Positions 2,022-21,640 of a DNA stretch of 22,185 nucleotides are shown piece after piece. The position numbers were made by a program, and so were the translations under genes. The stretch is taken from the IMG/VR virus record IMGVR_UViG_3300027608_000020, one strand, 5' to 3'. Under the pieces are notes generated by a model. The model did not search any database. It saw nothing but the letters and a program-made list of their open reading frames with translations, and had not been told where the DNA came from. How positions within the stretch are numbered: position 1 is the first letter of the stretch; each line of letters starts with the position of its first letter. Source of the DNA: a virus (lineage: Duplodnaviria > Heunggongvirae > Uroviricota > Caudoviricetes).

Positions 2022-2426
2022 ATGAAACTATACGAATTTTTTAACGTCCCTGTCGACAAAAAAGATAGGAAATTCCCCGATTACGGCAAAAGTAAAACAG
2101 AAGAAGAAAAAGCCAAGATGGCCGATGAGCTATTTTGGTATATTATTGATAATGATGCACTACACAAAGCACATGTTCTACCATTTGTAAAAGAATTAAA
2201 AACACAGATAACTTCACCAGATTTTAACAGAAACAGATTCACTAAATCATGGATGCCTATGGTTAATAAAGGCTGTAGGTTATTTTACAAACATCATAAA
2301 CTAACAGATAATCCAGCAAAGCTATTTGACGAAGATTTTAAAGACGAACTATGCAAAAGACTTTGTGATAAGTTTATAGATGATGTGCAAGAAGATTACT
2401 ATCAGGTCGGAGATCATAAAAAATGA
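2022..2426 (+). CDS. Hypothetical protein with capsid-targeting-like N-terminus (MKLYEFF)
   Basis: 134-aa ORF; ATGA overlap with the next gene; shares the N-terminal motif with neighbours. Confidence 0.8.
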   Translation: MKLYEFFNVPVDKKDRKFPDYGKSKTEEEKAKMADELFWYIIDNDALHKAHVLPFVKELKTQITSPDFNRNRFTKSWMPMVNKGCRLFYKHHKLTDNPAKLFDEDFKDELCKRLCDKFIDDVQEDYYQVGDHKK

Positions 2427-5400
2427 TCTTAAACGAGTTATTCAAACCTAAAAAGACTGTTCCTCTTTTTGAAGGTGGCAACTTAGAATTACCCAATCCT
2501 AACGATCCCACTGCACCTTATCAAGCTGACGAGATCGATCTCAAAGTACAAAACCGTAGTTTTATGGTGGGGTTACTAGATAAATTATTAAACGACATCA
2601 ATGGTGCTTTTTATAGCAAATACAAAAAGCCATTGTGGAATCCTAATTTACTACAATCAAAACAATTCTTAGGTGGCAGTAGTTTACATTTCTTTAATAC
2701 AGATGGTATTAGTGACAAAGAGTTTACTAAACATAAACCTAAAGTTGGCGACATTGATACACAATGTAATAAAGAACTTGAACCAGAGATTAGAGATTTT
2801 TTAACTGCATACGATCATAAACAAATAGGCGATACAACACTATTAGGATTTAGTCAAGGTAGTGAACAACTTAATGCACTATTTCAATTCCAAGATCCTC
2901 CTATTAAAATTCAAATAGATTTTGAATTTGGTCGATATGATACAGAAACAGACATGCCCGATGAGTGGTATCGCTTTAGTCATAGTTCAGAATGGAACGA
3001 CATTCAAGCAGGCATCAAAGGTGTTTTTCACAAATACATATATCGTGCATTAACTTCTGCACATAGTAGTGTTAAACATCAAGTAGATGTAAAGAAAACA
3101 AAAACAAATATTAAACCAAATGTACGTGACAACGATTTATCGTTTGCAGTTGCTAGTGGTCAGGGGGGCGGGCTAAGTCAAAAGTACGAACCTTATATTA
3201 ATACCGATCCAGAGACTGGTGAAAAGCAAACTCACAAGGACGAAGTTCCTTACAAGAGATTAATACCATCTGCTCAGAGAACCTACATACAGAATTTAGA
3301 TAAACAATTCTACTATTTCTTTGGCGCAAATCCCGAAGGCAATGATAAAGAATTACAAAAGAGTTTCTTAGGAACACTCGAGTTAATTAACAAATATATT
3401 CCAGATCCTGCTTCTAAAGAAAGTGTGTTTATGGCTTTCTTAGATCTTTGTTTTGAGCCAGGTAATGCTCAAATGATCACTAAGAATGATCCAGAGCGTG
3501 ATCAAGAAATTAAGTTTGCCGCAATTGATAACTTTGTTAAGGTGGGCAAGCTAGGTAAGTTGAGAAATACTGCCATAGAAATGGGCAAGGCCTACATGGA
3601 TGAGTTCAATGAAGTGCAAGCCTACAAGAAAGAACATCCGGAAGAAAAACAACCACGTGCCGCATTGAAGAGAGCAAAAGCCGCAAGTCAACCCGCAAAT
3701 GAAAACTTTGCTGATACACAAACTTTAGAAGAACGCCGTAATAAAAAACGTAAAGCTCGTCATGCTGCCTATGGTCCTGGCCTGTACGGTGGATATGGAT
3801 ATTACGCTGACTACAGCGGAGACAGTTCAGGTGATGGCGGGGGTGGTGATGGCGGGGGTGAAAGCATTAAGAATGAAGATGCCATGATGGGCAAGATAGC
3901 AGACTCGGGCAAAATTATTCGCATCTTGAAGAAAGCACATACGGTACCATTTAGCGATGAAAAAAACTGGTTGCTGGTAGATATGGATCCTGCCAAAGGC
4001 AACAATGGGCTGGGTATCAAATGGATACCTGCTGACACAAGATTTACTTGGGTAAGGCCTTATAGAGATAATGTGGGGCAAGGTGTGGCGGAAGGAGCAA
4101 CGGTTACACGAATTGATAGTAACCCTATCACGGATTTTGGGTCTAGTCTTAAAGCATACAAGCATACGGATGATTGGAGCCAAAGTGGTGTAGACACAGG
4201 TGACGATAGTTATTGGAAGAATAAAAATCTTAAAACTAATACTACTAAAGGATTGTTTGCTGGTGATCCAAGGAGAACAGCATTATACGCAACTGGCAAC
4301 GCACACGAAACACGCTATGTAGAGTTTACACAAAACGGCCAACCCATTGTTTATTTTGACCGCAAAGATTTGCCAGCAATGCGTAGTCGTAAAACTTACT
4401 TAACTGTGTTTGATGCTAGCGATTTCAGACAATTACCTACAGGTGAATGGTTTAGTGAAAATCCTAGTAAGCCTATCAAGCAGGTGCCCATTGGTGACCC
4501 ATTCAAATACATCGCCGATCAAGGGTGGATAGTTCGTGTTACTGATGATTTAGATAAAGTATTCAAACAAGTAAAGAACATGCACAAAGCAGGTAAAATT
4601 GCTCAATATGGTGCAGAAGGTATGAATGAAAGTAAGCAAGGTGTGGCGGAGAACTTTGCCGATGGAAAGAATCCGCAAGACAAGGGCGACAGCAAACGTC
4701 ACGGAGTTCCAACCAAAGCAAGCATAAGTACATTACGCAATGTTGCCAAACAAGGCGGACGTAAAGGACAGTTAGCACATTGGATGGCTAATATGAAAGC
4801 TGGTAAGGCTAAACACGAAAGTTTAAACGAAGCCGAAGTAAAAGCACAACTGCGTAAAGGCATGCCGCATCTTAAAGATCTTAAGGCCGCTGACTTTTTA
4901 GATTTACTAGATGAGATACACGACGGTAACGGTAATTTCAAATTAGAAAATATGCCGTTAAATGTTAAGGTAGACGGCTTTGGTGGGCGATTTGGTAAGA
5001 ACGCAGATGGTAAACCTTTTATGGGTACCAGCCGGACTGAGCCAAGATATGCACCGGGATTTGTAAAATACCATCAAGAAAAAGGTACACAAGATCCAGA
5101 GATACTAGGTCGTGCTAAACTGTTTGATGACTTGTTTGTAGAAATGATGAACGCTGTTAAATTAGTTGACAGCAAGTTAGGGCCAGACTTTTTAATAGAC
5201 AAACAAGTAAGTTGTGAAGTATTATTTTTACCATTTGCTACAGAAACTGAAGAAGGTAAATTAAAGTTTGTTGGTATTCATTATGACAAACTTCCACAAG
5301 GTGTACAACTTGCACTAGTTCCATTAAACGTAGTAACTGCTAGTACAGGTGAGCCTGTTGAAAATTCTCAGGAAGTTATAAAAGAATTAACAGGCCTCGG

Positions 5401-8400
5401 ACAACAAAGTAGTGTTATGTTTATCGACAACAGTCTAACACAAAACAAAGCATTAGATGTTACCGCAATTGTTCCACCGTTAGAAAATATTGAAGAACTA
5501 AAAAGCATAGTATCAGATACCGCAGGTAAAAGAGATCGTACTAGCTTAGAACTTAGAAAAAATGTTGAAGCACAATTACAACCAGTTAAACTTGCATTAG
5601 AAAAAGCCATTGCAGAAGATCCTAACATTGTCGGTAAAGATATGTTAGGCAAAGACTACGAAGGTATTGTACTAAACACAAGATTAGGTCCTGTAAAAAT
5701 TACCAGTACAGAACAACGTGCAGTCATTGCCGGTAAGCAGGCCGCCAAAACATCAGCAAGAACAGAACGTCCGAGAGGCGAATCTAAGACTGCTGTAGTA
5801 GCAATAGGATCCTTTATTGGGCATAAAGGACACGAAGAACTGTTTAACTATACAATTAATAAGGCCAGCGAACTAGGCGGTGATCCTTATTTGTTTATTG
5901 GCAATGCTGAAGGCAAAGATGATCCTATTCCGCCAGCAGTCAAGGTACAAACATGGCACAAATTATATCCCGAGTATGCTAAAAATATTAGCACAGTACA
6001 ACAAGGTGGACAATTAATACAAAAGATCAAACATGAATTAATTAATCCATTGCCAAATAAGCCTCCACGTTATGATAATATTGTTATCATGGTAGGCGAA
6101 GATCGGAAAGATCTTAATATGCCCCAAGCATTAATGAAGGCTGTTAATAAGTTTCAAGGGTACGAGCATGTTAAGGTAAGCCTCGGTGTTACACCTCGAG
6201 GAACTGGAATTAGCGGAACAATGTTACGCAACAGTTTAAAAAGTGATCCGCCAGAGAAAGCATTGGCTGTATGGTCAAATGCGTTCGATGTTAAAAAATT
6301 AGGCGAGGATTGGATCAACCATTTAATGGATATAACAAGGAAAGGTATGGGAATACAACAACAAACTCAACAACAACCTGCTCCTGTAGCTGAAAGATTG
6401 TTCAATGCATTGATGGCACCTAAAGTTAATGAATCAACTAGCTTAGAATCAACAATTAAAAATATTGTCACTAATGGTGAATCAATTGCACAATTATATG
6501 AAAAATTAAAAGCAATGGCCAAGCGTTGGGTTGATAACAATGGTAGTCTAAAAGGGTATCATCGCAACGCCGCGGGTCAAAGCGCACAGTGGTTTAACAA
6601 TTTCTATTGGAATAAAATGCAGGGAGATCTATATGATCTAACCAAACAGGCTTCAAAATATGCGCCTCCGTTATTGGCCTTCTTAAAAGATGCTAGTGAA
6701 GATAGAGAAAGACATATTAACTTTAGAGAAATTAGTTCAAGCCTACCGTCTATACTACAACAAATTGGTACAAGGATGGGAAATAAAGAACTATCATCAT
6801 TTGGTGCCAACTGGAATAAACGTCAGCAAGATTACGAAAACTATCTAGCACAAATTGAAGCAGAAGTTGATACAGATGACGATGATGGATATGAAGAACC
6901 TAAAGCACCAAAAGACAATACTTTTGGTAAACAAAATGTTCAAGCAGATCAAATTGTAAACGATATTCTAAAAAATCTCCCTAGCAAAGTAGCAGGAGAT
7001 ATTCGTAATGCTATTGCACGTAGTCCCAATAAATTACAAGCATTGCAAGCAGAATTACAAAAGCGCGGAGTTAAAGCACCAATGGCAGAAAGTTTAATTG
7101 AATCTGCTCGAATGAGTGCGGCAGTTAAACTACAACGTGCTTGGGAACGTGAGCAAGCTAAGAGCACTGCAAGTCGCAAGCGTGGCGAAGAGTATATGAA
7201 TCAGATCAAGCAAGATGTTGCTAATAAAAATAAAAAACCAGACGAGACAAAAGATGAAAGTATCATGGGATTTTTAGCAACACCTAAACACTCTATTGAA
7301 AAGAAATCTACTACAAGTTCGGCAGACATGCGTAAGTATTTTGAAAAAGACAAACCTAGCAAGCCTGAAAAAACGGAGAGGGGCGACGGTGGAGAAAAGA
7401 TACAACGAGTATATACAAGATCTGATGAAGACCAAGAAACTCCTCAACAACAACAGGTCCGTGCCGCAATTACTAAAGGTTTAGAAGTACACAAACAAAA
7501 AGGTGATGCCGAATATAAAACTCGGTTAGATCGATCCAATAAAGTTGGTACAGTACCTGGGCATTATTTTGATCCTAGAGGATATGCCAGTGATAAACTT
7601 TCCGGGATAGATTCCATTGATCCTAATGGTACTGTGGTTATATCTCTCCAGGATACTAGTGCCGAAGGCTGGATTAAAAAATTAGCAACATTAGGCGGTA
7701 TGCCTGGTGTTAAGACTAGACAAATTCAACCGGGTCAGGGTGTAGCGGAAGACAACTTAAATGAATTAGATATGTTTGCTCCTCGTACTGTTTATTTTAA
7801 GATGGGTGACGGTAATTATATTAAAGCAGATTATCGAGGAAGTGAAACTATTTTTGGCGGCGGACACAAAGCAAATGACCAGGTGAACTTTACATCAATG
7901 TCATGGGTTTCTACCAATACCGCTAGATCATTAGGACTTGATAAAACATTAGCAAAAGGATCTGATCCTAATGACACAAGAAGTCGAAATGCACAAAGTA
8001 TTGTATCTCCTCAGTATGTAGGGCAAGCCGGCCCTTGGGGTAATAGAAGTGTAGACGTAGTAGATTTTGTAAACAGCAAAGAAGAGACAGTTCCGTCAGA
8101 ACTAAAAACACAAGTGGCGCAGTGGGTAGAAAAAAATCGCCCCAAGAAAGGTGTGGCGGAAGGCAATCTAAAAGAATTTGCACCAGGTCCTGGAGGCGGA
8201 GAATCAGGACGCTGGTACACAGACGATCAACTAACTGATATTGTCGGTGATGGATGGTACAACGATTTAGATGTAAGCGGTGATATTCCCAAACAACAAA
8301 TGATCCAACAAGCACAGGCCTGGTTAGATGATCAAGGCTATAATGTTCAAGTATTAAACTGTAAAGTAAATGATGACGACATGGAATGGTATATTGAAGG

Positions 8401-9202
8401 TAGTTTCCAAAATTCTCGCTTTGCTAAAAAGGGTGTGGCGGAAAACAACCCTGCGGCAGGTATCAACAAAATGTTCAACAACCTAGGTGATCCTGTGTAT
8501 GCTAACCTACAACGAGTAGCTTTATTGGCCATGCAAGGCAGGCAGCAAGAAGCCTCCGGCCGCTTACAAACAGTGATCAAGGATGCTGATCCAGCTGTGC
8601 AGAAGAAAATCACAGATGCTGTGAACAACATCAAGCCTGTGACAATAAATGGTCGTGCGGCAGACTCTAGCACACTGGACAAAAGCAAACAGCACAATGA
8701 CTGGATCATCAACACATTCATTCCATGGGTGCAATCTTTATTGGGTAAGCAAGGTGTGGCGGAAGGTTCTAGCGGTGCCAAATACAAAGTAAGAAGCATC
8801 GGACAAGACAAGAAAGGTGAGTACTACATTAGCCCAAGCACCGGTGAGAAAGTCTACAAGAAAGCAAAAGTAGGCGACCACGAAGTACCCAATACTAAAG
8901 AAATTAAACCTAAAGTAGAAGCAATGATGCCTGCAAGTAACTTTGCAGGAAGTAAAAAGAATAAACTAGGTACAGCTGGGCAATTAAAAGCAACTGCTAA
9001 ACATGCTCGAGCAGGTGATCTAGTTGGTTCTGCAGAAAGTATACAATCCGAAGATCAACGTCTAGATCCTAAGTGTTGGAAGGGCTATCGCAAGCAAGGT
9101 ACTAAGATGAAGGGTGGTACTCGTGTTAATAATTGCGTCAAAGTTAGCGAAGATATTGAGAACAAGATGTCAGACTTAATCAGACTTCTAGAAAATAAAT
9201 AA
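2423..9202 (+). CDS. Giant modular protein (2,259 aa), putative head-packaged polyprotein with Pol-beta-like NTase, ligase-like and HxGH nucleotidyltransferase domains
   Basis: Uninterrupted ORF. N-terminus MILNELF; GGSS (2672) + GDID (2747-2758) + IQID (2909-2920); KVDG (4967-4978), CEV, EGIVL (5660-5674), VKI; HKGH (5822-5833), VGEDR, ISGTMLR (6209-6229); six [QK]GVAE repeats; C-terminal CWKGY...NCVK module. Confidence 0.85.
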   Translation: MILNELFKPKKTVPLFEGGNLELPNPNDPTAPYQADEIDLKVQNRSFMVGLLDKLLNDINGAFYSKYKKPLWNPNLLQSKQFLGGSSLHFFNTDGISDKEFTKHKPKVGDIDTQCNKELEPEIRDFLTAYDHKQIGDTTLLGFSQGSEQLNALFQFQDPPIKIQIDFEFGRYDTETDMPDEWYRFSHSSEWNDIQAGIKGVFHKYIYRALTSAHSSVKHQVDVKKTKTNIKPNVRDNDLSFAVASGQGGGLSQKYEPYINTDPETGEKQTHKDEVPYKRLIPSAQRTYIQNLDKQFYYFFGANPEGNDKELQKSFLGTLELINKYIPDPASKESVFMAFLDLCFEPGNAQMITKNDPERDQEIKFAAIDNFVKVGKLGKLRNTAIEMGKAYMDEFNEVQAYKKEHPEEKQPRAALKRAKAASQPANENFADTQTLEERRNKKRKARHAAYGPGLYGGYGYYADYSGDSSGDGGGGDGGGESIKNEDAMMGKIADSGKIIRILKKAHTVPFSDEKNWLLVDMDPAKGNNGLGIKWIPADTRFTWVRPYRDNVGQGVAEGATVTRIDSNPITDFGSSLKAYKHTDDWSQSGVDTGDDSYWKNKNLKTNTTKGLFAGDPRRTALYATGNAHETRYVEFTQNGQPIVYFDRKDLPAMRSRKTYLTVFDASDFRQLPTGEWFSENPSKPIKQVPIGDPFKYIADQGWIVRVTDDLDKVFKQVKNMHKAGKIAQYGAEGMNESKQGVAENFADGKNPQDKGDSKRHGVPTKASISTLRNVAKQGGRKGQLAHWMANMKAGKAKHESLNEAEVKAQLRKGMPHLKDLKAADFLDLLDEIHDGNGNFKLENMPLNVKVDGFGGRFGKNADGKPFMGTSRTEPRYAPGFVKYHQEKGTQDPEILGRAKLFDDLFVEMMNAVKLVDSKLGPDFLIDKQVSCEVLFLPFATETEEGKLKFVGIHYDKLPQGVQLALVPLNVVTASTGEPVENSQEVIKELTGLGQQSSVMFIDNSLTQNKALDVTAIVPPLENIEELKSIVSDTAGKRDRTSLELRKNVEAQLQPVKLALEKAIAEDPNIVGKDMLGKDYEGIVLNTRLGPVKITSTEQRAVIAGKQAAKTSARTERPRGESKTAVVAIGSFIGHKGHEELFNYTINKASELGGDPYLFIGNAEGKDDPIPPAVKVQTWHKLYPEYAKNISTVQQGGQLIQKIKHELINPLPNKPPRYDNIVIMVGEDRKDLNMPQALMKAVNKFQGYEHVKVSLGVTPRGTGISGTMLRNSLKSDPPEKALAVWSNAFDVKKLGEDWINHLMDITRKGMGIQQQTQQQPAPVAERLFNALMAPKVNESTSLESTIKNIVTNGESIAQLYEKLKAMAKRWVDNNGSLKGYHRNAAGQSAQWFNNFYWNKMQGDLYDLTKQASKYAPPLLAFLKDASEDRERHINFREISSSLPSILQQIGTRMGNKELSSFGANWNKRQQDYENYLAQIEAEVDTDDDDGYEEPKAPKDNTFGKQNVQADQIVNDILKNLPSKVAGDIRNAIARSPNKLQALQAELQKRGVKAPMAESLIESARMSAAVKLQRAWEREQAKSTASRKRGEEYMNQIKQDVANKNKKPDETKDESIMGFLATPKHSIEKKSTTSSADMRKYFEKDKPSKPEKTERGDGGEKIQRVYTRSDEDQETPQQQQVRAAITKGLEVHKQKGDAEYKTRLDRSNKVGTVPGHYFDPRGYASDKLSGIDSIDPNGTVVISLQDTSAEGWIKKLATLGGMPGVKTRQIQPGQGVAEDNLNELDMFAPRTVYFKMGDGNYIKADYRGSETIFGGGHKANDQVNFTSMSWVSTNTARSLGLDKTLAKGSDPNDTRSRNAQSIVSPQYVGQAGPWGNRSVDVVDFVNSKEETVPSELKTQVAQWVEKNRPKKGVAEGNLKEFAPGPGGGESGRWYTDDQLTDIVGDGWYNDLDVSGDIPKQQMIQQAQAWLDDQGYNVQVLNCKVNDDDMEWYIEGSFQNSRFAKKGVAENNPAAGINKMFNNLGDPVYANLQRVALLAMQGRQQEASGRLQTVIKDADPAVQKKITDAVNNIKPVTINGRAADSSTLDKSKQHNDWIINTFIPWVQSLLGKQGVAEGSSGAKYKVRSIGQDKKGEYYISPSTGEKVYKKAKVGDHEVPNTKEIKPKVEAMMPASNFAGSKKNKLGTAGQLKATAKHARAGDLVGSAESIQSEDQRLDPKCWKGYRKQGTKMKGGTRVNNCVKVSEDIENKMSDLIRLLENK
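3830..3859 (+). repeat. Perfect tandem 15-nt repeat GGTGATGGCGGGGGT x2 (GDGGG GDGGG linker)
   Basis: Read directly: 3830-3844 and 3845-3859, ending a Gly/Tyr-rich module. Confidence 0.9.
4079..4096 (+). repeat. GVAE repeat copy 1 (CAAGGTGTGGCGGAAGGA)
   Basis: In-frame QGVAEG; core GGTGTGGCGGA. Confidence 0.9.
4637..4651 (+). repeat. GVAE repeat copy 2 (CAAGGTGTGGCGGAG)
   Basis: In-frame QGVAE; 19 nt (4632-4650) identical to 8745-8763. Confidence 0.9.
7736..7750 (+). repeat. GVAE repeat copy 3 (CAGGGTGTAGCGGAA, one core mismatch)
   Basis: In-frame QGVAE; GTA instead of GTG. Confidence 0.85.
8147..8164 (+). repeat. GVAE repeat copy 4 (AAAGGTGTGGCGGAAGGC)
   Basis: In-frame KGVAEG. Confidence 0.9.
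8429..8443 (+). repeat. GVAE repeat copy 5 (AAGGGTGTGGCGGAA)
   Basis: In-frame KGVAE. Confidence 0.9.
8750..8767 (+). repeat. GVAE repeat copy 6 (CAAGGTGTGGCGGAAGGT)
   Basis: In-frame QGVAEG; 18 nt (8749-8766) identical to 4078-4095. Confidence 0.9.
9195..9201 (+). promoter_or_regulatory. Possible late promoter (ATAAATA) overlapping the giant-ORF stop, upstream of dps
   Basis: Same heptamer as 1494 and 1953; could be chance in AT-rich DNA. Confidence 0.35.
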
Positions 9203-9210
9203 CATATTAA

Positions 9211-9663
9211 ATGGATTTAAAAATGGAAGATTTACGTAAGGCTGCTAAGATAGGTTTCGCAAGCGAATTTAGTTTTTATCTAAAGGCGCATAACTACCAT
9301 TGGAATGTTGTGGGCAGTGACTTTTTAGAATATCATCAACTGTTTGGTGCTGTATACGAAGAAGTGTATGCAAGCATCGATATCTTTGCTGAAAAAATTC
9401 GTAGCTTAGGCACCTTTGTTCCCGGAAGTCTAAGCGCATTTAGTATGCTTAGTACAGTTCCAGATGAAAATAGTCTTCCACCTAAAGAAGCAATGGTTGC
9501 AGAATTATTGCAAGATAACGAACGCATGATAGAAGTTTTAAAATTAGTTTATGATCTAGCAGAAAAATACGGTGAACACGGATTTAGTAATTTCTTAGCA
9601 GAACGTATGGATGCACATCGTAAACACGGCTGGATGTTAAGTGCTAGCCTACAAGGACAATAA
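9211..9663 (+). CDS. dps: Dps family ferritin-like (DNA protection during starvation) protein
   Basis: LKAHNYHWNVVG...HQLF...YEE, DIFAEKIRSLG and HRKHGWML are Dps signatures. Alternative start ATG 9223 (MEDLRK). Confidence 0.93.
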   Translation: MDLKMEDLRKAAKIGFASEFSFYLKAHNYHWNVVGSDFLEYHQLFGAVYEEVYASIDIFAEKIRSLGTFVPGSLSAFSMLSTVPDENSLPPKEAMVAELLQDNERMIEVLKLVYDLAEKYGEHGFSNFLAERMDAHRKHGWMLSASLQGQ

Positions 9664-9664
9664 T

Positions 9665-10033
9665 ATGCGTTTTAAAGAATTCATTGTTGAAAAGAAAAAA
9701 GGTCATATTACTAAAAGAGTGCAACAGCCAAGTCGAGGGATTAATACCTACGGAGACGAGGAACGTGTAAGCGGTGATTATGTTTCATTTAAATTAGGAC
9801 AGGCAATGGCAATGGCCGACGGTTCAAATAAACCATTAGACATTGATGCAAAAAGCTGGCATGGAAAAAAGAAAACAACTCAACCTTATTCCGAAATAGA
9901 ACAAAAAATGTTTTTGCAAGCAGCCAAGGCTGTGGGAGCCAGTGCTGTAGACGTTAACAACGGCGATATGAAAAGCAAAGAGTTAGACGACACGCACACA
10001 GTAAGCCCTATAAGTAACTGGATGAAAAAATGA
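9665..10033 (+). CDS. Hypothetical protein with T4 internal-protein-like N-terminus (MRFKEFIVE)
   Basis: Start moved from 9641 to ATG 9665, right after the dps stop; N-terminus resembles T4 IPII/IPIII MKTYQEFIAE. Confidence 0.78.
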   Translation: MRFKEFIVEKKKGHITKRVQQPSRGINTYGDEERVSGDYVSFKLGQAMAMADGSNKPLDIDAKSWHGKKKTTQPYSEIEQKMFLQAAKAVGASAVDVNNGDMKSKELDDTHTVSPISNWMKK

Positions 10034-10488
10034 AAATACACGACCTAGTACAAGAAAATGACATGACCTCATTTTTTAAGAATCTTCAAAAAACAGATCC
10101 AAAGTTTAAAAATCTGCGAATTCACGGAGATCCAGAACATGACGAGTTACGTAAGCAAGATGAACTAAAACGTCAAGCAGACCGAACCGATCGTGAGGAT
10201 AAAGCACAACAGGCTAGGGCGGCACAGGTTGAACAAGATAGAAAAAATCTTCCACAATTAGTAAAACAACTTGAACAACTACGAGCACAGTTTGATCCTA
10301 ATTTTGAATATAGTGATGATCATAGTTTTTGGTCTAAGCAAAAAGATTTACAGAGTCAGTTATATGCACTACAAGCAAGAATAAATGCCGCAGGTGGTGC
10401 TCAAGAAAGTGCAAGCGGTGGTTCAACTAGCTCATCAGCTGTTCCACAAGGACCCGGCAAAGGTCGTCCAGATAGTATAGTAGTGTGA
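10030..10488 (+). CDS. Hypothetical coiled-coil protein with capsid-targeting-like N-terminus (MKIHDLVQE)
   Basis: 152 aa, Q/K/E-rich helical middle, C-terminal ESASGGSTSSSAV low-complexity module; ATGA overlap with the upstream gene. Confidence 0.78.
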   Translation: MKIHDLVQENDMTSFFKNLQKTDPKFKNLRIHGDPEHDELRKQDELKRQADRTDREDKAQQARAAQVEQDRKNLPQLVKQLEQLRAQFDPNFEYSDDHSFWSKQKDLQSQLYALQARINAAGGAQESASGGSTSSSAVPQGPGKGRPDSIVV

Positions 10489-10496
10489 GAAATATT

Positions 10497-10976
10497 ATGA
10501 ACAAAAAAACATTAAAAGAATTTAACGGTGAATATGATGACGAAGCAGGAATGGCTGCAGGTAGTCTTCATACACTAAAAAGAGCCGTAGATGGGCTAAT
10601 GAATACTATCGATGAAAACGATAACTTGCCAGAATGGTGTCAAGAAAAGATTTCTTTAGCTGAAGATTATCTGGTTACTGTTTGGGATTACATACAAAGC
10701 GAAAAAGCTCAAGGAAACGATCCAGAGATTAACGAAAATAAAAAAGGCGTTAAGGCTATGAAGCATACTAAAAAACCAAAACCTATCAATCCTGTAGCAA
10801 AACATGCTATGGCCTCATTGGGCGGCGGGGCGGCGGGCGCACATAAAGATAAAAAGAAAGCCGAAACTGTTCCACGTAAATCAAAGCATAAAAAGGCCGC
10901 AACAGTATCTGAAAGCTGGTACGAATTACGGTTACAAACTTTGCTAGAAGCTAATGTACGGGCTATGAAAAAATGA
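10497..10976 (+). CDS. Hypothetical modular protein (acidic helical module plus Lys-rich basic module), probable internal head protein
   Basis: ATG 10497 preferred over GTG 10485; modules separated by TLKE, EINE, TVSE (hydrophobic-x-E) sites. Confidence 0.75.
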   Translation: MNKKTLKEFNGEYDDEAGMAAGSLHTLKRAVDGLMNTIDENDNLPEWCQEKISLAEDYLVTVWDYIQSEKAQGNDPEINENKKGVKAMKHTKKPKPINPVAKHAMASLGGGAAGAHKDKKKAETVPRKSKHKKAATVSESWYELRLQTLLEANVRAMKK

Positions 10977-12483: not shown

Positions 12484-15153
12484 ATGAGTTATGTAGATGC
12501 CATATGGGATCGCGACAATGACATTATCAAAGTTGTAGAGCGTGATCCAAAGAAGGGAAGGATATTTCAAGAATTTCCAGCCCGTTATGTATTTTATTAT
12601 CCTGATCAAAAGGGTAAGTACAGATCAATTTACGGCGAAAGCCTGTCCAAAGTGGTATGCAAAAGCCACAAAGAATTTCAAAAAGAACAACGTATCCACA
12701 ACAATCAACGATTGTTCGAAAGCGATATTAATCAAGTTTTTAGATCACTAGAAGAAAACTATCTAGGTAAAGATGCCCCAAAACTCAACGTAGCGTTTTG
12801 GGACATCGAGGTGGACTTTGATCCAGAACGAGGCTATGCAAGTCCAGATGATGCGTTCATGCCAATCACTGCTATCGCTGTTCACCTACAATGGTTAGAC
12901 ACATTAATATGCCTTGCTATTCCTCCCAAAACACTTACCATGGAACAGGCGAAGGAACAGGTTAAAGATTTTCCAAATACAATTCTGTTTGAAACAGAAG
13001 GAGAAATGTTAGATACATTTTTAACATTGATTGAAGATGCTGATGTGTTAAGTGGGTGGAACAGCGAAGGCTTTGATATGCCCTATACTGTAAATCGTAT
13101 TATTAAAGTGTTAAGCAAGGATGATACTCGTAGATTATGTCTATGGGATGCAATGCCTAAAAAGAGAGAGTATGAGAAGTATGGAAAAGCGGCTGTTACT
13201 TATGATCTGGTTGGTCGTGTTCATCTGGACAGTCTCGAGCTGTACCGCAAGTATACATACGAAGAACGCCATACTTACCGACTTGATGCGATTGGAGAAT
13301 TAGAAGTAGGCGAAACTAAGACACAATACGAAGGTACACTGGATCAACTGTACAATAATGACTTTAAGAAGTTTATCGAATATAACAGACAAGATACTGC
13401 ATTATTAAACAAACTAGATAAGAAATTAAGGTTTATTGATCTTGCTAATACACTGGCACATGAATGTACTGTATTGCTACAAACCACAATGGGTGCTGTA
13501 GCAGTAACTGAACAGGCTATTGTAAATGAAGCACATCATAGAGGTTTGATTGTTCCAAGTCGACCAAAGCGTGATGAGGATGCTAGTAATCAGGCCGCAG
13601 GTGCGTATGTTGCCTATCCAAAGAAAGGACTTCACGATTGGATCGGATCAATGGACATCAACAGTCTGTATCCATCTGTAATTCGTGCATTGAACATGGG
13701 GCCGGAAACTATTGTCGGTCAGCTACGCCAAACATACACTCAAGCAGAAATTGATGCTAAGATTGCTAAAGGTAATAGTTTTGCCGCGGCATGGGAAGGT
13801 AAGTTTGGTGCTAATGAATATGAGTTTGTTATGAATAAAGACAAAGCTCACGAAATTCACGTTGACTGGGAAAACGGTGATACTGATGTACTTACTGGAG
13901 CACAAATCTATGAAATGATTTTTGAAAGTAATCAGCCATGGGTACTAAGTGCTAACGGTACTATCTTTACCTATGAAAAAGAAGGTATTATTCCTGGACT
14001 ACTAAAACGCTGGTATGCTGAACGTAAAGAAATGCAGGCCAAACTAAAAGATGCAATTAAAGCGGAGAATAAAATTGAAGAAGAATATTGGGACAAGAGA
14101 CAATTGGTTAAAAAGATTAACCTTAATAGCTTATACGGTGCTATACTTAACGCTGGCTGTAGGTTTTTCGATAATCGTATTGGTCAGTCAACCACGCTTA
14201 CCGGCCGAGGCATTGCCCGCCATATGGCCGCAAAAATAAATGAAGTAGTCACAGGCGAGTATAACCATACTGGCAAGGCTATCATCTACGGTGATACTGA
14301 TTCTGCATATTTCTCGGCATACGCAACCCTTAGGAAAGAAATTGATAAAAAAGAAATTCCTTGGACAAGAGACAGTATTATTCAATTGTATGATACCGTT
14401 GCTGAAGAAGTAAACAGTACATTCCCACAGTTTATGTTAGATGCACATCACTGCCCTAAATCGCGCGGTGAAGTTATTAAGGCAGGACGTGAGATTGTAG
14501 CAGTTAAAGGCTTGTTTATTACCAAGAAGCGTTATGCTGTATTGTATTACGACAAAGAAGGTAAACGACAAGACATAGACGGAAAGCCTGGAAAGATCAA
14601 GGCCATGGGCTTGGATCTTAAGCGTAGCGATACGCCGGAATTTATGCAGAAGTTCTTAGAAGAAATTCTAACTGATGTACTTAACGGTGCCCAGGAGACA
14701 GATATTCTAGAACGCATTAGCGAGTTTCGCACTGAGTTCAAAGCTAGACCCGGTTGGGAGAAAGGTAGTCCAAAACGTGCTAACAATATTACGGACTATC
14801 AAGCTAAGGAAGCCAAGGCAGGTAGAGCAAATATGCCCGGACACGTTCGTGCTAGCATTAATTGGAATACTCTAAAACGCATGAACGGAGACAAATACTC
14901 AATGGGTATTGTTGATGGCATGAAAGTTATTGTATGTAAGGTTAAGGATAATCCTTTAGGCTATACATCAATTGCTTATCCAGTTGATGAATTACGGTTA
15001 CCTAAGTGGTTTCAGGATTTACCATTTGATCATGCAGAAATGGAAGCCACTATTATTAATAACAAACTCGAAAATCTTATTGGGGTTCTAGAGTGGGACT
15101 TGGGGTCCACTACACAAACTAACACGTTTGGTTCGCTATTCACATTTGAATAA
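12484..15153 (+). CDS. polB: Family B DNA polymerase with 3'-5' exonuclease (T4 gp43-like)
   Basis: Exo I WDIEVD, Exo II GWNSEGFDMPY, Exo III YNRQD; polymerase motifs DINSLYPS, KKINLNSLYG, YGDTDS, KKRY, KAMGLD. No intein-sized insertion. Confidence 0.97.
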   Translation: MSYVDAIWDRDNDIIKVVERDPKKGRIFQEFPARYVFYYPDQKGKYRSIYGESLSKVVCKSHKEFQKEQRIHNNQRLFESDINQVFRSLEENYLGKDAPKLNVAFWDIEVDFDPERGYASPDDAFMPITAIAVHLQWLDTLICLAIPPKTLTMEQAKEQVKDFPNTILFETEGEMLDTFLTLIEDADVLSGWNSEGFDMPYTVNRIIKVLSKDDTRRLCLWDAMPKKREYEKYGKAAVTYDLVGRVHLDSLELYRKYTYEERHTYRLDAIGELEVGETKTQYEGTLDQLYNNDFKKFIEYNRQDTALLNKLDKKLRFIDLANTLAHECTVLLQTTMGAVAVTEQAIVNEAHHRGLIVPSRPKRDEDASNQAAGAYVAYPKKGLHDWIGSMDINSLYPSVIRALNMGPETIVGQLRQTYTQAEIDAKIAKGNSFAAAWEGKFGANEYEFVMNKDKAHEIHVDWENGDTDVLTGAQIYEMIFESNQPWVLSANGTIFTYEKEGIIPGLLKRWYAERKEMQAKLKDAIKAENKIEEEYWDKRQLVKKINLNSLYGAILNAGCRFFDNRIGQSTTLTGRGIARHMAAKINEVVTGEYNHTGKAIIYGDTDSAYFSAYATLRKEIDKKEIPWTRDSIIQLYDTVAEEVNSTFPQFMLDAHHCPKSRGEVIKAGREIVAVKGLFITKKRYAVLYYDKEGKRQDIDGKPGKIKAMGLDLKRSDTPEFMQKFLEEILTDVLNGAQETDILERISEFRTEFKARPGWEKGSPKRANNITDYQAKEAKAGRANMPGHVRASINWNTLKRMNGDKYSMGIVDGMKVIVCKVKDNPLGYTSIAYPVDELRLPKWFQDLPFDHAEMEATIINNKLENLIGVLEWDLGSTTQTNTFGSLFTFE

Positions 15154-15160
15154 AATATAT

Positions 15161-15189
15161 TTGACATTGTTCAAAATTCTAAATAAACT
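15161..15189 (+). promoter_or_regulatory. Sigma70-type promoter TTGACA-N17-TAAACT
   Basis: -35 at 15161-15166, -10 at 15184-15189; RBS AAGGA before ATG 15208; TAAATA embedded at 15180-15185. Confidence 0.7.
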
Positions 15190-15207
15190 ATACAAAAGGA
15201 AATTAAC

Positions 15208-15942
15208 ATGAAAGACATTCTTCAAGACATCGTAGGACATACACATAACCTGGGGTTCCTCAACGTTGTAAAAATTACAGGTGACGATAAGAAAACACTT
15301 ATTGATTCTATGGCAGATGACCGTTCGGTTATTATGACTGCCGAAACAGCAGACCCGCATCCAGATATGATTGGTGTGTTTGGCATGCCGCAATTGAATA
15401 AACTAAAGTTCTTGTTAGATTGCCCAGAATATAAAGAAAACGCATCTATTGCAACTATCACCGCGGATCGAAACGGTGAAACATTGCCAGTAGGTTTGCA
15501 TTTTGAAAATGCAACAAAGGATTTTAAAAACGATTATCGTTTTATGAGTACTGACATTATTAACGAAAAACTTAAGACTATGAAGTTTAAAGGCGTTAAG
15601 TGGGATGTAACTGTTAGCCCAAGTGTTCAATCAATACAGCGGTTTAATTTTCAGGCAAGTGCAAATAGTGAACACACTACATTCCTTGCCAAAACTGAAG
15701 GCGGTAATTTAAAGTTTATCTTTGGTGACCAATCAACACACGGTGGTGAATTTATTTTTGCAACTAACGTAGCCGGTAGCCTAAATAAAGCATGGACATG
15801 GCCAGTTGCTAGCGTATTAAGTATTCTTAAGATTGCTGATGCTAACAATGCAACCGTTGCATTTTCAAATGAAGGTGCTATGCAAGTTATGTTAGACAGC
15901 GGTATTGCCAATTACAAATATATTATTCCAGCTAACGCATGA
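15208..15942 (+). CDS. DNA polymerase sliding clamp (gp45/PCNA-like)
   Basis: 244 aa, directly after PolB; alternating beta/alpha pattern and C-terminal YKYIIPA typical of clamps. Assigned from size, context and pattern rather than one diagnostic motif. Confidence 0.72.
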   Translation: MKDILQDIVGHTHNLGFLNVVKITGDDKKTLIDSMADDRSVIMTAETADPHPDMIGVFGMPQLNKLKFLLDCPEYKENASIATITADRNGETLPVGLHFENATKDFKNDYRFMSTDIINEKLKTMKFKGVKWDVTVSPSVQSIQRFNFQASANSEHTTFLAKTEGGNLKFIFGDQSTHGGEFIFATNVAGSLNKAWTWPVASVLSILKIADANNATVAFSNEGAMQVMLDSGIANYKYIIPANA

Positions 15943-16304
15943 TAAAAAGCCTTACACAACAGGGAATGTTTACACAGGTTAGCAACGGCTCTCCTGCTCC
16001 GACATATTATCAAACTGGACAACCTATGTCCGGTCAGGTAAGATATTGCAATAACGAATTTGAAGTTTACGACGGCTCAATTTGGCATAAGATACAAGGT
16101 TCATATGCAAGTGTAGGATTAACATCAAACGCCGAATCTGCAATAAATTGGGCATTAGGTAAAATGAACGAAGAAAAAGAACTTCAAAAATTAAGTAATG
16201 AAAACCCTGCTGTTAAGATTGCATATGAAAATATGAAACGTGCCGCTAAACAATTAGAAATAACACAAATATTAAGCAAAGAAGAATATGAATCCACCAG
16301 TTAA
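15939..16304 (+). CDS. Hypothetical protein
   Basis: 121 aa, ATGA overlap; beta-rich N-half (FEVYDGSIW), helical C-half. Confidence 0.7.
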   Translation: MIKSLTQQGMFTQVSNGSPAPTYYQTGQPMSGQVRYCNNEFEVYDGSIWHKIQGSYASVGLTSNAESAINWALGKMNEEKELQKLSNENPAVKIAYENMKRAAKQLEITQILSKEEYESTS

Positions 16305-17823
16305 CCTAACCCCATTTCAGAAAGACTACGCTGTCTATTTGCCAGCTATTAGTAGTTTCTATAGCACCTATGTTGCTAAACAGAGATTAGAGAAGTTTAT
16401 TCCAGACGATCGTGTTCCGACGGGATTTGATCGTGGTATTGAAGGAATGAATTTTCTTAATCCCGAACAAGGTTACTTTACTTACAAATATGGATTGTAT
16501 TCCGCAGGTCATGCACAGTTAGACCTAAACAAATCATTGACGCAAGAGTCAATGATTCAACAACGAGATCGTGGCAACACAATGATCTTAGGTGACTCTG
16601 GTGGATATCAAATTGGTAAAGGTGTTCTTAAGTTTGACTGGCTAGATTTTGAGGGCAAGGCCGCAAACAAGACTCGTCAAAGTATTTTAGAATGGTTAGA
16701 ACTTACTGCTGACTGGTCCATGATGCTGGACGTTCCTACTTGGGCATGTGATCACATTCATAGTCCAAAGACTGGATTAAAAACATTTGATGATTGTTTA
16801 GATAAAACAAAATTCAATAATAAGTATTTCTTAGATAATCGATTAGGTCAAACTAAATGGCTTAACGTGCTACAAGGCGGCGACTGGGATACCGCAGAAG
16901 CATGGTATCAAGGTGTAAAAGAATTTAGCGATCCCACAGGTCCGTATGCCGGTCGTGAAGCCGAAGGGTGGGCCTTTGGTGGTGCTAATATGTGTAAGAT
17001 GGATATTACTCTCAAGCGTTTAATGACACTTAGAGAAGATGGTTTGCTCGAAGGCAAAAACTGGATCCACTTTTTGGGTACAGCACAGTTAGATTGGTCA
17101 TGCTTTTTAACATCAATTCAACGTCAAATAAGGAAACACATAAATGAAGAAATTACCATCTCTTTTGATTGCGCCTCACCGTTCATTGCAACAGCCCACG
17201 GACTTGTCTACACCAATGCAGTCCACACACCAAAAAGGTGGAGCGTTATTATGGACAAAGCCTTTGACAACAAAGCTCTTGCAGGAAGCGATATTCCGTT
17301 CCCCTTCGAATCAGAGATCGGTCGCAGATTAACTGTAGGCGACATTTGTCATTACGCACCCGGAATGTTAAATAAGATTAAGAAAGAAGGAAAAACTAGT
17401 TGGGATAGTTTTGCCTATGCTCTAATGATGGGACATAATGTATATTGTCATATTGTTGCCGTACAACGTGCTCAACAGTTAATGGACATTGAATGTGCTA
17501 AACATAAGCCAGATTGGCGCATGTGGAGTTTAGAAGGCAAGAAAGAAATCGAATTAAGCGATTGGGTTCCACGAAAGATTCTTTATTTTGATAGATTTGT
17601 AGAAGAGTTGTTTAACACTAAAACAAAAGCCGAAGCATTTGAGATGATTGAACAAGCAGTTCCATTCTTAAAGAGTTTAGAAGGTTCTCGACTACAAGGT
17701 GGTCCTAAACAAAACACGTTTAACAATTTGTTTGAAGTAGAAGTAACTAAATCAGACGAAGTTGATCTCGAAGATGTTGAAGACGAAAAAATGATTAAAT
17801 TAATGAGCGACTTAGGAGTCTAA
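16288..17823 (+). CDS. dpdA: tRNA-guanine-transglycosylase-like protein, probably DpdA-type (7-deazaguanine insertion into DNA)
   Basis: TGT motifs GDSGGYQ (D at 16594), MMLDVP (D 16729), VLQGG, WAFGG, IHFLG, SFDC (D 17167); no CxCxxC zinc cluster; clustered with QueD-like and folE genes next to the polymerase. Confidence 0.78.
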   Translation: MNPPVNLTPFQKDYAVYLPAISSFYSTYVAKQRLEKFIPDDRVPTGFDRGIEGMNFLNPEQGYFTYKYGLYSAGHAQLDLNKSLTQESMIQQRDRGNTMILGDSGGYQIGKGVLKFDWLDFEGKAANKTRQSILEWLELTADWSMMLDVPTWACDHIHSPKTGLKTFDDCLDKTKFNNKYFLDNRLGQTKWLNVLQGGDWDTAEAWYQGVKEFSDPTGPYAGREAEGWAFGGANMCKMDITLKRLMTLREDGLLEGKNWIHFLGTAQLDWSCFLTSIQRQIRKHINEEITISFDCASPFIATAHGLVYTNAVHTPKRWSVIMDKAFDNKALAGSDIPFPFESEIGRRLTVGDICHYAPGMLNKIKKEGKTSWDSFAYALMMGHNVYCHIVAVQRAQQLMDIECAKHKPDWRMWSLEGKKEIELSDWVPRKILYFDRFVEELFNTKTKAEAFEMIEQAVPFLKSLEGSRLQGGPKQNTFNNLFEVEVTKSDEVDLEDVEDEKMIKLMSDLGV

Positions 17824-17829
17824 AAAAAC

Positions 17830-18354
17830 ATGACACAATTATATAGAATTACACCTGTTAATACAGGATCAATTAAAATGGTACTAAGTATCATCGAACA
17901 AAGCACAAGCAACATGATGGCTGGGGAAGATAGAGGCATGTCAATTATTACAGTATACAATACTGGATGTGCGTTCCGAAGCATGGACAAACCGGTATAC
18001 GCATCAGAGATTGATTCTTATATTGAATGTAATGCCGAACTTGGGGCACCCGAACTAACAGATCCTCGACCAGAAGAAGAATTTGAATTTAATGAATTTA
18101 TTATTAGCAGTGACGGTAATACTCATATTGCTGATGTATTTCAAGACATGTGGACTAACGGCACATCCAAAGAGGGGTACGAAGGCTTAACCAAAATGGA
18201 TTTGTTTACGTCCGATGCGTTTAGATCCGGTAGATGGAGTACTGCTAGTACAAAAATACGTATTTTGGGCCCCGTAACTATTGACATAGTGACAGGAACC
18301 ACGTATACTAATGTTATCGAAACTAACATACAGCCATTAACAGATGAAACGTGA
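17830..18354 (+). CDS. Hypothetical acidic protein
   Basis: 174-aa ORF packed between flanking genes; no recognised motif. Confidence 0.65.
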   Translation: MTQLYRITPVNTGSIKMVLSIIEQSTSNMMAGEDRGMSIITVYNTGCAFRSMDKPVYASEIDSYIECNAELGAPELTDPRPEEEFEFNEFIISSDGNTHIADVFQDMWTNGTSKEGYEGLTKMDLFTSDAFRSGRWSTASTKIRILGPVTIDIVTGTTYTNVIETNIQPLTDET

Positions 18355-18856
18355 TTACACAACAGGCGAAGCAAGCGATGTTCAGTTCTTTACAGGCGTA
18401 GAGGTTGAACATACACCGGCATTTGGAAAGATGACATTGTTTGTAACAGGCATACATCCAGTAGAAGAAATTGCTCTAAACTTAAATGGAGCAGAGCATA
18501 TTTTCTTTGGTGCAAATCATAGCTTTAATCCACGGACTTCGGAAGAATGGAAACAGTGGGAAGATATGATTTCATATTTCTTAGATAAAGATTATCTGTG
18601 TTCCCTAGATATTCCGTTGAGTGCTGTAGAAGAGTTTAATGACGGTGGATTGAATGATTACGATAACTTCATTCCGCAAATAAGAGTTCCAGTTCCATAT
18701 ATTAAATTATGGAACTATAACACGATGCTTAAGATCGATGATAAAGATTTTAAAGCAACGAACCCGGGCGTGTGGTGTCATAGCCTACACGATTTAAAAG
18801 ACCGTAGTAAGTTTACTCCATGGGATGCTTACTCTAACGATACAATCTTAAAATGA
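18344..18856 (+). CDS. Hypothetical protein within the deazaguanine cluster
   Basis: 170 aa; enzyme-like motifs EVEHTP, HIFFGANHSF, WCHSLH; function not recognised. Confidence 0.75.
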   Translation: MKRDYTTGEASDVQFFTGVEVEHTPAFGKMTLFVTGIHPVEEIALNLNGAEHIFFGANHSFNPRTSEEWKQWEDMISYFLDKDYLCSLDIPLSAVEEFNDGGLNDYDNFIPQIRVPVPYIKLWNYNTMLKIDDKDFKATNPGVWCHSLHDLKDRSKFTPWDAYSNDTILK

Positions 18857-19062
18857 AAGAAGTTATTATCAAAGACGATGCCGGGTTTCGGCTTGTTCTT
18901 AAAGCATGGAAATGTTCCGCACCTCGAGATTTAAATGCTCTTGAATTTACTCAACAAGCAAAAGATTTAAATGGTGACGTTACACTATCTTCAACATATC
19001 AATTTTTTATGACAGACGCCGAACTAGATATCCTTGCAGAAGGAATTAAAAATGTCATCTGA
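18853..19062 (+). CDS. Hypothetical protein
   Basis: 69 aa, ATGA overlap upstream, overlaps the start of the next gene. Confidence 0.6.
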   Translation: MKEVIIKDDAGFRLVLKAWKCSAPRDLNALEFTQQAKDLNGDVTLSSTYQFFMTDAELDILAEGIKNVI

Positions 19063-19453
19063 TCTATCAATGATTTGGGTAACCTTCCGTAAAGAAGGTA
19101 TTCACATGTACCCTGCCGCGGCAACTGATCCTAAGTTGGCTACAGGTGATGAATATGATGTTAGTTTCCTCGGAACTCCACATCGTCATATTTTCCATTT
19201 TAAAGTTTATATCCAGGTCTATCAAGATGACCGTGACATTGAGTTTATCCAGTTTAAGCGTTGGCTTGAAAAGTGCTACAGTGATGGTACATTAGAGCTC
19301 AACCATTGTTCCTGTGAGATGATTGCTCGTGATCTTAACGACATCATCAAAGCAAGATACCCTGGTCGTAAGACTATCATCGATGTAAGTGAAGACGGTG
19401 AGAATGGCGCCGCACTTACTTTTATTAATCACATTTCTACAATGGAATCTTAA
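19052..19453 (+). CDS. QueD-like T-fold protein (6-pyruvoyl-tetrahydropterin synthase family), LxxxHRHxF (DpdL-type) variant
   Basis: RBS AAGGA before ATG 19052; EGIH, LGTPHRHIFH (19169-19198), SCEMIA, VSEDGENGA. Confidence 0.78.
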   Translation: MSSDLSMIWVTFRKEGIHMYPAAATDPKLATGDEYDVSFLGTPHRHIFHFKVYIQVYQDDRDIEFIQFKRWLEKCYSDGTLELNHCSCEMIARDLNDIIKARYPGRKTIIDVSEDGENGAALTFINHISTMES

Positions 19454-19454
19454 A

Positions 19455-19715
19455 ATGGCAAATATCCCTGCCTACATCCAAAAAACTCTTAAAATGAAAC
19501 CAGAGGTTGAAAAAGTATTCGATGACCTCGATAAATGGCTCGACTATTGTCGTTTCAATTTAATTAACTTTAATCCTGCCGATATGTATCGTTCACGAGA
19601 GTGGCGAGACTCTGCTAGAGGTACCGGCGAGCACCGTGAGCGTAAACCGTACTTGGGCAATAAGCCACGTTGGGACAACACCGGTAGACGCAATGAGCAG
19701 AATTTTTCTCGTTGA
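19455..19715 (+). CDS. Hypothetical protein with Arg-rich C-terminus
   Basis: ATG 19455 immediately after the upstream TAA (track start 19389 overlaps the QueD-like gene); FDDLDKWLDYCRF motif. Confidence 0.7.
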   Translation: MANIPAYIQKTLKMKPEVEKVFDDLDKWLDYCRFNLINFNPADMYRSREWRDSARGTGEHRERKPYLGNKPRWDNTGRRNEQNFSR

Positions 19716-21590: not shown

Positions 21591-21601
21591 TAATGTAAAC
21601 T
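21573..21601 (+). promoter_or_regulatory. Sigma70-type promoter TTGACA-N17-TAAACT upstream of folE
   Basis: -35 at 21573-21578 (inside the ugd 3' end), -10 at 21596-21601; same hexamers and spacing as 15161-15189. Confidence 0.65.
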
Positions 21602-21640
21602 AAACAAATGTCATCCACGACACAAACTCGGAGAATTTAA

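Follow-up and report, generated by a model that had tools for sequence, protein, structure and literature searches.

Why should a five-residue motif that recurs within one viral protein be kept not only as a peptide but also as DNA, in bases that the genetic code leaves free? This question is raised by the window analysed here, a stretch of 22,185 nucleotides (nt) from the Caudoviricetes record IMGVR_UViG_3300027608_000020. Its long open reading frame (ORF), at 2423–9202 on the + strand and 2,259 residues long, carries six copies of [QK]GVAE. A first-pass annotation, made from the letters alone, had proposed that this one element acts as a protease cleavage site in the protein and as a recombination handle in the DNA, by which modules could be gained, lost or swapped in frame. 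Breakpoints of homology and the conservation of codons, both described below, support this proposal, whereas the cleavage and the mechanism of recombination are put forward conditionally. On the sequence comparisons we favour, with moderate confidence, the view that the junction is a protease site and at the same time a short recombination patch that would diversify cargo packaged in the phage head.

The repeat in the window

The six copies begin, with their Gln or Lys codon, where they had first been placed:

4079..4093, + strand: junction copy 1, QGVAE, coded CAA GGT GTG GCG GAA
4637..4651, + strand: junction copy 2, QGVAE, a GAG variant
7736..7750, + strand: junction copy 3, CAG GGT GTA GCG GAA, with one mismatch; a metagenomic joint described below ends here
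8147..8161, + strand: junction copy 4, KGVAE
8429..8443, + strand: junction copy 5, KGVAE; unitigs of several metagenomic runs branch here
8750..8764, + strand: junction copy 6, QGVAE

All six lie in the frame that reads GVAE. The 11-mer GGTGTGGCGGA is exact at 4082, 4640, 8150, 8432 and 8753, and the copy at 7739 differs from it in one base, with GTA for GTG. Dinucleotide-preserving shuffles predict 0.05 copies, and none of 100 shuffles reached six. The codons are unusual for this gene, as had been remarked: outside the motif GTG makes up ~13% of the Val codons and GCG ~4% of the Ala codons, and the VAE near 6386 is indeed coded GTA GCT GAA. The spacings from repeat to repeat (558, 411, 282 and 321 nt) and the longest identities (19 nt between copies 2 and 6, 18 nt between copies 1 and 6) were recovered as annotated.

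Two points of the first-pass annotation had to be narrowed. It described an array at 4078–8767 within one ORF. The copies are found there, but the junction also occurs in second and third polyprotein genes of relatives, and the array is therefore not confined to this interval or to a single ORF. Likewise, GVAE marks module boundaries at its six positions, but other borders in the same ORF are different: the enzyme core is bounded by SLNE/A at residue 803 and by KVNE/S at residue 1337 (slashes indicate the presumed cut), which are non-GVAE sites of the hydrophobic-x-Glu type.

Conservation of the junction as DNA

For comparison 80 related viral contigs were retrieved, and 81 related loci were examined. 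The 115 GVAE sites in these loci represent 91 unique contexts, with none on the opposite strand. At the unique sites three codons are used far above their background:

GGT (Gly): 83 of 91 sites, background fraction 0.43, P = 5e-22
GTG (Val): 72 of 91 sites, background fraction 0.11, P = 7e-51
GCG (Ala): 78 of 91 sites, background fraction 0.06, P = 2e-81

The complete 11-mer is present at 68 of the 91 sites, where codon use predicts 0.3%; hence the synonymous codons of GVAE in relatives are far from random. The bias extends to neighbouring wobble positions (CAA 54 to CAG 0, GAG 18 to GAA 3, AAG 18 to AAA 11, GGC 35 to GGT 11) and gives a consensus of ~20 nt, RAG CAA GGT GTG GCG GAA GGC. At a distance of more than ~7 codons from the junction the wobble positions of the 91 sites are ordinary and A/T-rich. 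Since the fixed bases comprise common as well as rare codons, it is a specific string that is conserved and not a cluster of rare codons. In control motifs the pattern is missing: xVAE with x other than Gly is coded by GTT or GTA and GCA or GCT, and GCG is found in none of the 36 [LIVM]AE sites in ORFs of the relatives' head-gene loci (scaffold, capsid protein and neighbours). One-base derivatives of the junction were seen as well, with GTA or with ATG, the latter giving GMAE.

The 11-mer was counted in and out of frame in 1.18 Mb of sequence. All 87 exact copies lie on the + strand and in frame; 29 belong to the main gene, the other 58 to second or third polyprotein genes downstream of it. 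In the long contigs of relatives (100–230 kb) the motif is confined to the polyprotein locus, and no antisense or complementary copy of it was found in them. At least 119 viral contigs contain the exact 17-mer. In a replication set of 80 further loci, 103 of 103 matches to the 17-mer are in the GVAE frame, the median open frame being 542 residues; all but one match lie in open frames of at least 100 residues (the exception has 16), and other GVAE sites of the same ORFs are exact at 56 of 75 positions. In relatives without GVAE no alternative repeated linker was found.

Exchange of cassettes at the junction

The junctions and the remaining borders divide the polyprotein as follows (residue numbers refer to the whole chain):

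2423..9202, + strand: polyprotein gene (P0001); N-terminal domain, enzyme core and C-terminal module conserved, variable cassettes between them
2423..3772, + strand: N-terminal domain, residues 1–450, phrog_19290; leader MILNELF and a PLFE/GG site at residue 17
3872..4093, + strand: small module S0b, residues 484–557, ending in junction copy 1; directly precedes the core in relatives
4094..4651, + strand: cassette S1, residues 558–743, DUF6886-like; absent from the closest relative, L001
4652..4822, + strand: basic module S2a, 57 residues, NFADGKNP...HWMANMKAGKAK, isoelectric point 10.5
4823..6427, + strand: enzyme core, residues 801–1335, with a KxDG ligase-like motif and, behind it, an HxGH nucleotidyltransferase fold
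6428..7750, + strand: variable region, residues 1336–1776, sub-modules present or absent among relatives; ends in junction copy 3
7751..8161, + strand: cassette S3, residues 1777–1913; recurs in P0003, P0008 and P0032
8162..8443, + strand: cassette S4, residues 1914–2007, acidic; recurs in P0099, P0027 and L067
8444..8764, + strand: cassette S5, residues 2008–2114; G+C content at third codon positions (GC3) 0.50, against 0.24–0.31 elsewhere in the ORF
8765..9199, + strand: C-terminal module S6, conserved, with a CWKGY...NCV motif

Across the family, residues 1–420, 800–1335 and 2160–2259 are conserved and the remainder is variable. The segments between the repeats had been called unrelated to each other, which holds for the family as a whole: its 88 unique GVAE-to-GVAE segments, with a median of 102 residues, fall into 61 families. 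These 61 families are unrelated to each other and are bordered by one and the same 11-mer, in phages with a core identity of only 60–75%. The cassettes S1, S3, S4 and S5 of the window all recur elsewhere among relatives. S1 is located after the core in P0028, where it is 96% identical although the cores share 77%. S5 is 93% identical between phages, compared to 78% for the cores; it precedes the core in P0023, P0033, P0087 and P0093, follows it in P0018, P0011 and P0022, and belongs to separate ORFs in L018 and L004. S3 and S4 appear in combinations that differ from that of the window. Orthologues therefore differ in content and order, since cassettes move before or after the core, pass into other polyproteins, occur as stand-alone genes or are absent; two genomes hardly ever share the linkage of adjacent cassettes.

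The basic module S2a is found in many contexts, frequently as the C-terminal end of other polyproteins. Its contig depth is 3–5 times that of its surroundings, and contigs that diverge before 4652 and behind 4813 are numerous. S2a may be a DNA-binding or targeting tail.

Where do these exchanges begin and end? In comparison with L001, DNA homology stops at 3877 and resumes at 4649, in copy 2; a second interruption begins at 7446 and ends at 8746, at copy 6. Other relatives resume at nearly the same positions, namely at 4643–4649 for copy 2 (L001 and L002) and at 8746–8755 for copy 6 (L001, L002 and L049). Over 163 motif-bearing ORFs, 397 of 2,139 unique breakpoints are at most 12 nt away from an exact motif, while the null expectation is 76 ± 11. 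Breakpoints thus accumulate at the repeat and do not avoid it. Downstream homology tracts start at -8 to 0 relative to the motif, with a peak at -2/-3, and upstream tracts end at +10 to +16, with a peak at +12 to +14; hence the zone of switching is the motif itself. Only 10 high-scoring segment pairs run through a GVAE site, whereas 814 break there.

Contigs with deleted or rearranged cassettes, for which the first-pass annotation had advised to look, were found in nature. Joints were taken from Logan contigs of four lake runs, and parts of the window without contig cover were not counted as evidence. In the joint from 8146 to 8750, whose shorter side is 92 nt, 603 nt are skipped, which is the distance from motif 4 to motif 6; in run X20 the contig with this deletion coexists with one that carries S4. 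Further joints connect 8166 with 8744, 8168 with 8744, 7429 with 7748, 3817 with 4652 and 7140 with 8747. In one contig the order is swapped (8766 to 8192), so that S4 stands behind S5, and copies 5 and 6 are branching points of unitigs. The joints connect one motif with another. The assembler's k of 31 exceeds the shared identity of at most 19 nt, which makes it unlikely that the repeat gave rise to chimeric contigs.

The junction as a candidate protease site

T4-type prohead proteases cleave after the Glu of hydrophobic-x-Glu sites. The six GVAE copies fit this rule, as do SLNE and KVNE at the borders of the core. Related contigs (G002, G003 and G005) encode a Peptidase_S77 protein, the T4-type prohead protease (92 bits), together with a gp23-type capsid protein (~270 bits), and relatives also encode a scaffold protein. 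In the capsid protein of relatives KYLAE/A is found near the N-terminus, and the scaffold contains KVAE/NF, KSLAE/T and KDLAE/T. With a T4-type prohead protease present in relatives, cutting after the Glu of the junction is plausible.

Modules of this kind are also found as separate genes in the window:

2022..2426, + strand: stand-alone gene with leader MKLYEFF; fused in frame to the polyprotein N-terminus in 12 relatives
9665..10033, + strand: stand-alone gene with leader MRFKEFIVE; the homologue in L080, L041 and L021 is a module at the C-terminal end of the main polyprotein
10030..10488, + strand: stand-alone gene beginning MKIHDLVQE; homologue within the second polyprotein of L066
10497..10976, + strand: stand-alone gene beginning MNKKTLKE/FNGEYDDEA; homologues within second polyproteins (L070 and L048)

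A further stand-alone gene with such a leader starts at 11226. The leaders MILNELF, MKLYEFF, MRFKEFIVE and MKIHDLVQE appear to resemble the capsid-targeting leader of T4. In a contig of lake run X7, GFNGEYDDEA directly follows junction copy 5, while in the gene at 10497 FNGEYDDEA follows the Glu of the leader. Because FNGEYDDEA stands behind the leader Glu as well as behind GVAE, the presumed mature start is the same in both settings.

The second polyproteins of relatives (L067:10898-13493 and L045:5308-7681) have up to seven GVAE junctions and modules of 57–128 residues. They share a leader, M..NEFK...TLE/S, and a basic tail, KPRNFVAKNA..GAGAHKDKKK, which is also present in the window gene at 10497–10976.

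A proposed junction with two uses

From these observations we propose the following scheme. The gene would encode a cargo polyprotein in a jumbo phage of the T4 type, an uncultured lake virus; conserved enzyme domains and changing small unrelated modules would be translated as one chain. The chain would probably be taken into the prohead and be cut by the T4-type prohead protease after the Glu of its hydrophobic-x-Glu sites. The resulting fragments would remain inside the head, from which they could pass into the host together with the DNA. The most frequent junction, [K/E]-Q-G-V-A-E/G, is kept as DNA too, in a single orientation and frame, so that the general recombination machinery of the phage could exchange, delete, insert and reorder modules at this patch between co-infecting relatives and leave the frame intact. 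DNA identity would thereby promote the exchange, and junctions that retain the sequence would keep joining in it, by which the sequence would be maintained. The benefit may lie, for instance, in a varied anti-defence cargo.

Several points weigh against this scheme. Exact and variant-coded GVAE sites have breakpoints equally often (67% each), and dependence on DNA identity is therefore not demonstrated. Some cassette borders in relatives are SLAE, DVTE or NLSE and lack the DNA motif, which means that exchange does not strictly depend on it. Selection for intact modules alone would also leave breakpoints at domain borders and linkers. It is because of these three points that our confidence is no more than moderate. 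In addition, for homologous recombination to be efficient a patch of 11–20 nt is short, the joints from the lakes come from contigs of different strains and are not events within one clone, and cleavage and packaging of the polyprotein are presumed, the protease being that of relatives.

A bolder form of the scheme would make the ~20-nt junction an evolved recombination signal, possibly with a dedicated phage factor, for the in-frame exchange of injected, probably anti-defence, proteins. One sequence would then be codon string, protease site and crossover point together, and reshuffling would take place on ecological time scales. We regard this form as tentative and rather doubtful.

Alternative explanations

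The junction could be a protease site and domain border whose DNA is kept for some other nucleotide function, such as a translational pause, an mRNA signal or protein binding, while selection for whole modules sets the breakpoints. The rare codons GTG and GCG would fit a pause, and both the equal frequency of breakpoints at exact and variant-coded sites and the breakpoints at non-GVAE borders are in line with this explanation. However, the conserved string is specific, with the common codons GGT, CAA and GAA fixed above background as well, and the 100–230 kb contigs contain no complementary copy elsewhere. The flanks of the motif are unrelated, so that a shared RNA structure is impossible. Furthermore, these codons are not used at candidate protease sites of the relatives' head-gene loci. 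We consider a nucleotide function of this type improbable.

Specific candidates for such a function were also tried and rejected. For an internal GTG start the Shine-Dalgarno-like AAGG is too close to the GTG, and a RegB-type GGAG site exists only in the GAG variants. A target of a guide RNA or an antisense RNA was discarded since no complementary copy was found, and generic rare-codon pausing since common codons are fixed too.

Improbable to the same degree, in our judgement, is a passive conservation, in which the copies are alike through recent descent during a fast spread of cassettes, or through gene conversion, and are not selected as a handle. The near absence of linkage between adjacent cassettes would agree with a fast spread, the cassettes are more similar than the cores, and the one-base derivatives (GTA, and ATG giving GMAE) look like decay. 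Against this, the 11-mer flanks 61 unrelated families in phages with diverged cores, and copies identical by descent beside unrelated cassettes require crossovers inside the motif. Such crossovers are the handle mechanism itself, and consequently passive conservation differs from our scheme only on the matter of selection.

That GVAE is only a flexible linker, in a large enzyme of many domains that would act in the cytoplasm without being cut, is less probable still. In favour of this, the gene lies beside replication genes and not in the head module, but the motif fits the hydrophobic-x-Glu rule, LAE/A and VAE/N stand at the expected places in the capsid protein and the scaffold of relatives, and the modules also exist as separate genes behind leaders that appear to resemble that of T4, with KE/FNGEYDDEA in one setting corresponding to GVAE/GFNGEYDDEA in the other.

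Finally, the suggestion of the first-pass annotation that the repeats arrived with donor DNA preferring GTG and GCG can practically be dismissed: it finds a match in S5, with its raised GC3 and with GTG in 6 of 7 Val codons, but the other cassettes have a GC3 of 0.24–0.31 and almost no GTG or GCG, and the more distant wobble positions around the 91 sites are as A/T-rich as usual. The composition of S5 suggests that this cassette itself was recently acquired from a more GC-rich relative.

Relation to known systems

Parts of this arrangement are already known. The internal proteins of T4 are diverse and only their targeting sequence is conserved (PMC3012670). Our proposed system resembles these proteins (IPI, IPII, IPIII and Alt, which the prohead protease gp21 processes) in the T4-type protease and capsid protein of relatives, the hydrophobic-x-Glu sites, the apparently similar N-terminal leaders and the diverse small, often basic, proteins that share a conserved targeting or cleavage element. 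In contrast to T4, many modules and large enzyme domains are here concatenated, up to 2,259 residues, with internal sites, and the junction is conserved as DNA as well.

PeSL repeats shuffle ORFans in T4-type genomes, and their authors drew the comparison to integrons themselves (Arbiol et al. 2010, PMC2839356). As in our case, short conserved direct repeats flank cassettes, crossovers fall inside the repeats and there is no dedicated recombinase. PeSLs, however, combine a sigma-70-like promoter and a stem-loop in an intergenic spacer, whereas the junction is a coding, in-frame element of 11–20 nt with neither promoter nor hairpin; all of its copies lie in ORFs.

In CdiA, the sequences that encode VENN have been proposed as points of recombination (Poole et al. 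2011, PMC3150448). Like the PeSLs, they are a precedent for exchange at a short conserved sequence. In CdiA and Rhs proteins, too, a conserved peptide motif and its coding DNA mark the start of a module, and homology between strains starts and stops there. Those bacterial secretion systems have one terminal toxin and a cognate immunity gene per module. Here, many modules are contiguous in a single frame, immunity genes are missing and the motif is a putative site of a phage head protease.

Polyvalent proteins combine many effector domains in one polypeptide, are thought to be delivered with the DNA and carry an embedded peptidase (Iyer et al. 2017, PMC5512222). Several unrelated domains in one polypeptide are a feature of our family as well, and the HD/RelA-SpoT-like, ParB and lysozyme domains of relatives are typical of the phage type. 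An embedded metallopeptidase is not part of the present polyprotein, in which neither a Pfam peptidase family nor an HExxH motif was found; the prohead protease would instead do the processing, at a repeated linker. A junction conserved as DNA is not described for that class.

The integron, to which the locus had first been likened, is apt as a logical analogy, with an ordered array of cassettes that can be exchanged, each of them delimited by a recurring site, and a single upstream expression signal. Beyond this the likeness ends. The cassettes are fused in frame and are not separate promoterless genes. The motif is not an imperfect palindrome of the attC type, it has no opposite-strand copy in the 1.18 Mb, and no integrase family was found among the part of the window ORFs that was scanned. 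The junction system is therefore not an integron. In our literature search no paper on this polyprotein family or its junction was found.

The polyprotein family and neighbouring genes

Homologues of the ORF were found in metagenomes (n = 253). The runs in which DNA of the phage was detected number 20, all of them from freshwater or lakes, and belong to 17 studies. CheckV estimates for relatives correspond to genomes of ~350 kb. In a megablast search of the ORF against cultured phages no match was obtained, and tblastn gave only weak matches of the N-terminal domain, in Vibrio and Campylobacter phages, besides one metagenomic match to S1. The gene context in Vibrio phage Va1 was uninformative, and a sequence search of the Protein Data Bank with the N-terminal domain returned no match.

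The HxGH fold of the core matches PPAT, NMNAT and FAD-synthetase at E = 9e-6. The core unites this nucleotidyltransferase fold and a KxDG motif of the ligase or capping-enzyme type as one conserved unit, and a role in RNA repair or nucleotide modification is possible. Homologues in relatives contain, besides the domains mentioned above, sigma-70 region 4 modules. The conserved domains are mosaic too: P0008 and P0014 have a core ~90% identical to that of the window but an N-terminal domain of 43–44% identity, which points to an exchange of whole domain alleles between lineages. The C-terminal motif RLDPKCWKGYRKQGTKMKGGTRVNNCV (window 9065–9170, residues 2215–2250) recurs within second polyproteins of L045, L066 and L070. 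It is ~52% identical to hypothetical proteins of Synechococcus T4-like phages (ACG-2014d), and 3 PHROGs without assigned function match it.

Two genes upstream of the polyprotein, a 5'-truncated ORF (2–1489, + strand) encodes a ClpA/ClpB-type double AAA+ unfoldase with AAA_2, AAA_lid_9 and ClpB_D2-small domains; its PHROG label is 'ATP-dependent protease', though it has no protease domain of its own. It is conceivable that this unfoldase handles the giant polyprotein. Downstream, 9211–9663 (+ strand) encodes a ferritin/Dps-like protein (PF00210; phrog_3636, 'DNA binding protein'). In relatives an equivalent gap of ~620 nt separates the main and second polyprotein genes. The region 12484–22185 (+ strand) includes a family B DNA polymerase and, at 15208–15942, a phrog_12062 protein. 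The ORF at 16288–17823 has no PHROG or Pfam match; read by eye, it appears DpdA-like and the frame at the 3' end FolE-like, as in a putative 7-deazaguanine DNA-modification cluster. The junction motif contains several G residues.

Implications

If the proposed scheme is true, large phages could vary the proteins they carry into the host without ever breaking the reading frame, any module being able to stand beside any other. This would link the internal proteins of T4, repeat-mediated modular shuffling and polymorphic or polyvalent effector proteins. The 17-mer is a searchable signature that delimits hundreds of small uncharacterised modules, a promising set in which to look for injected proteins of anti-defence or host takeover. 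Moreover, constructs that load T4-type heads with foreign proteins could be designed after the junction.

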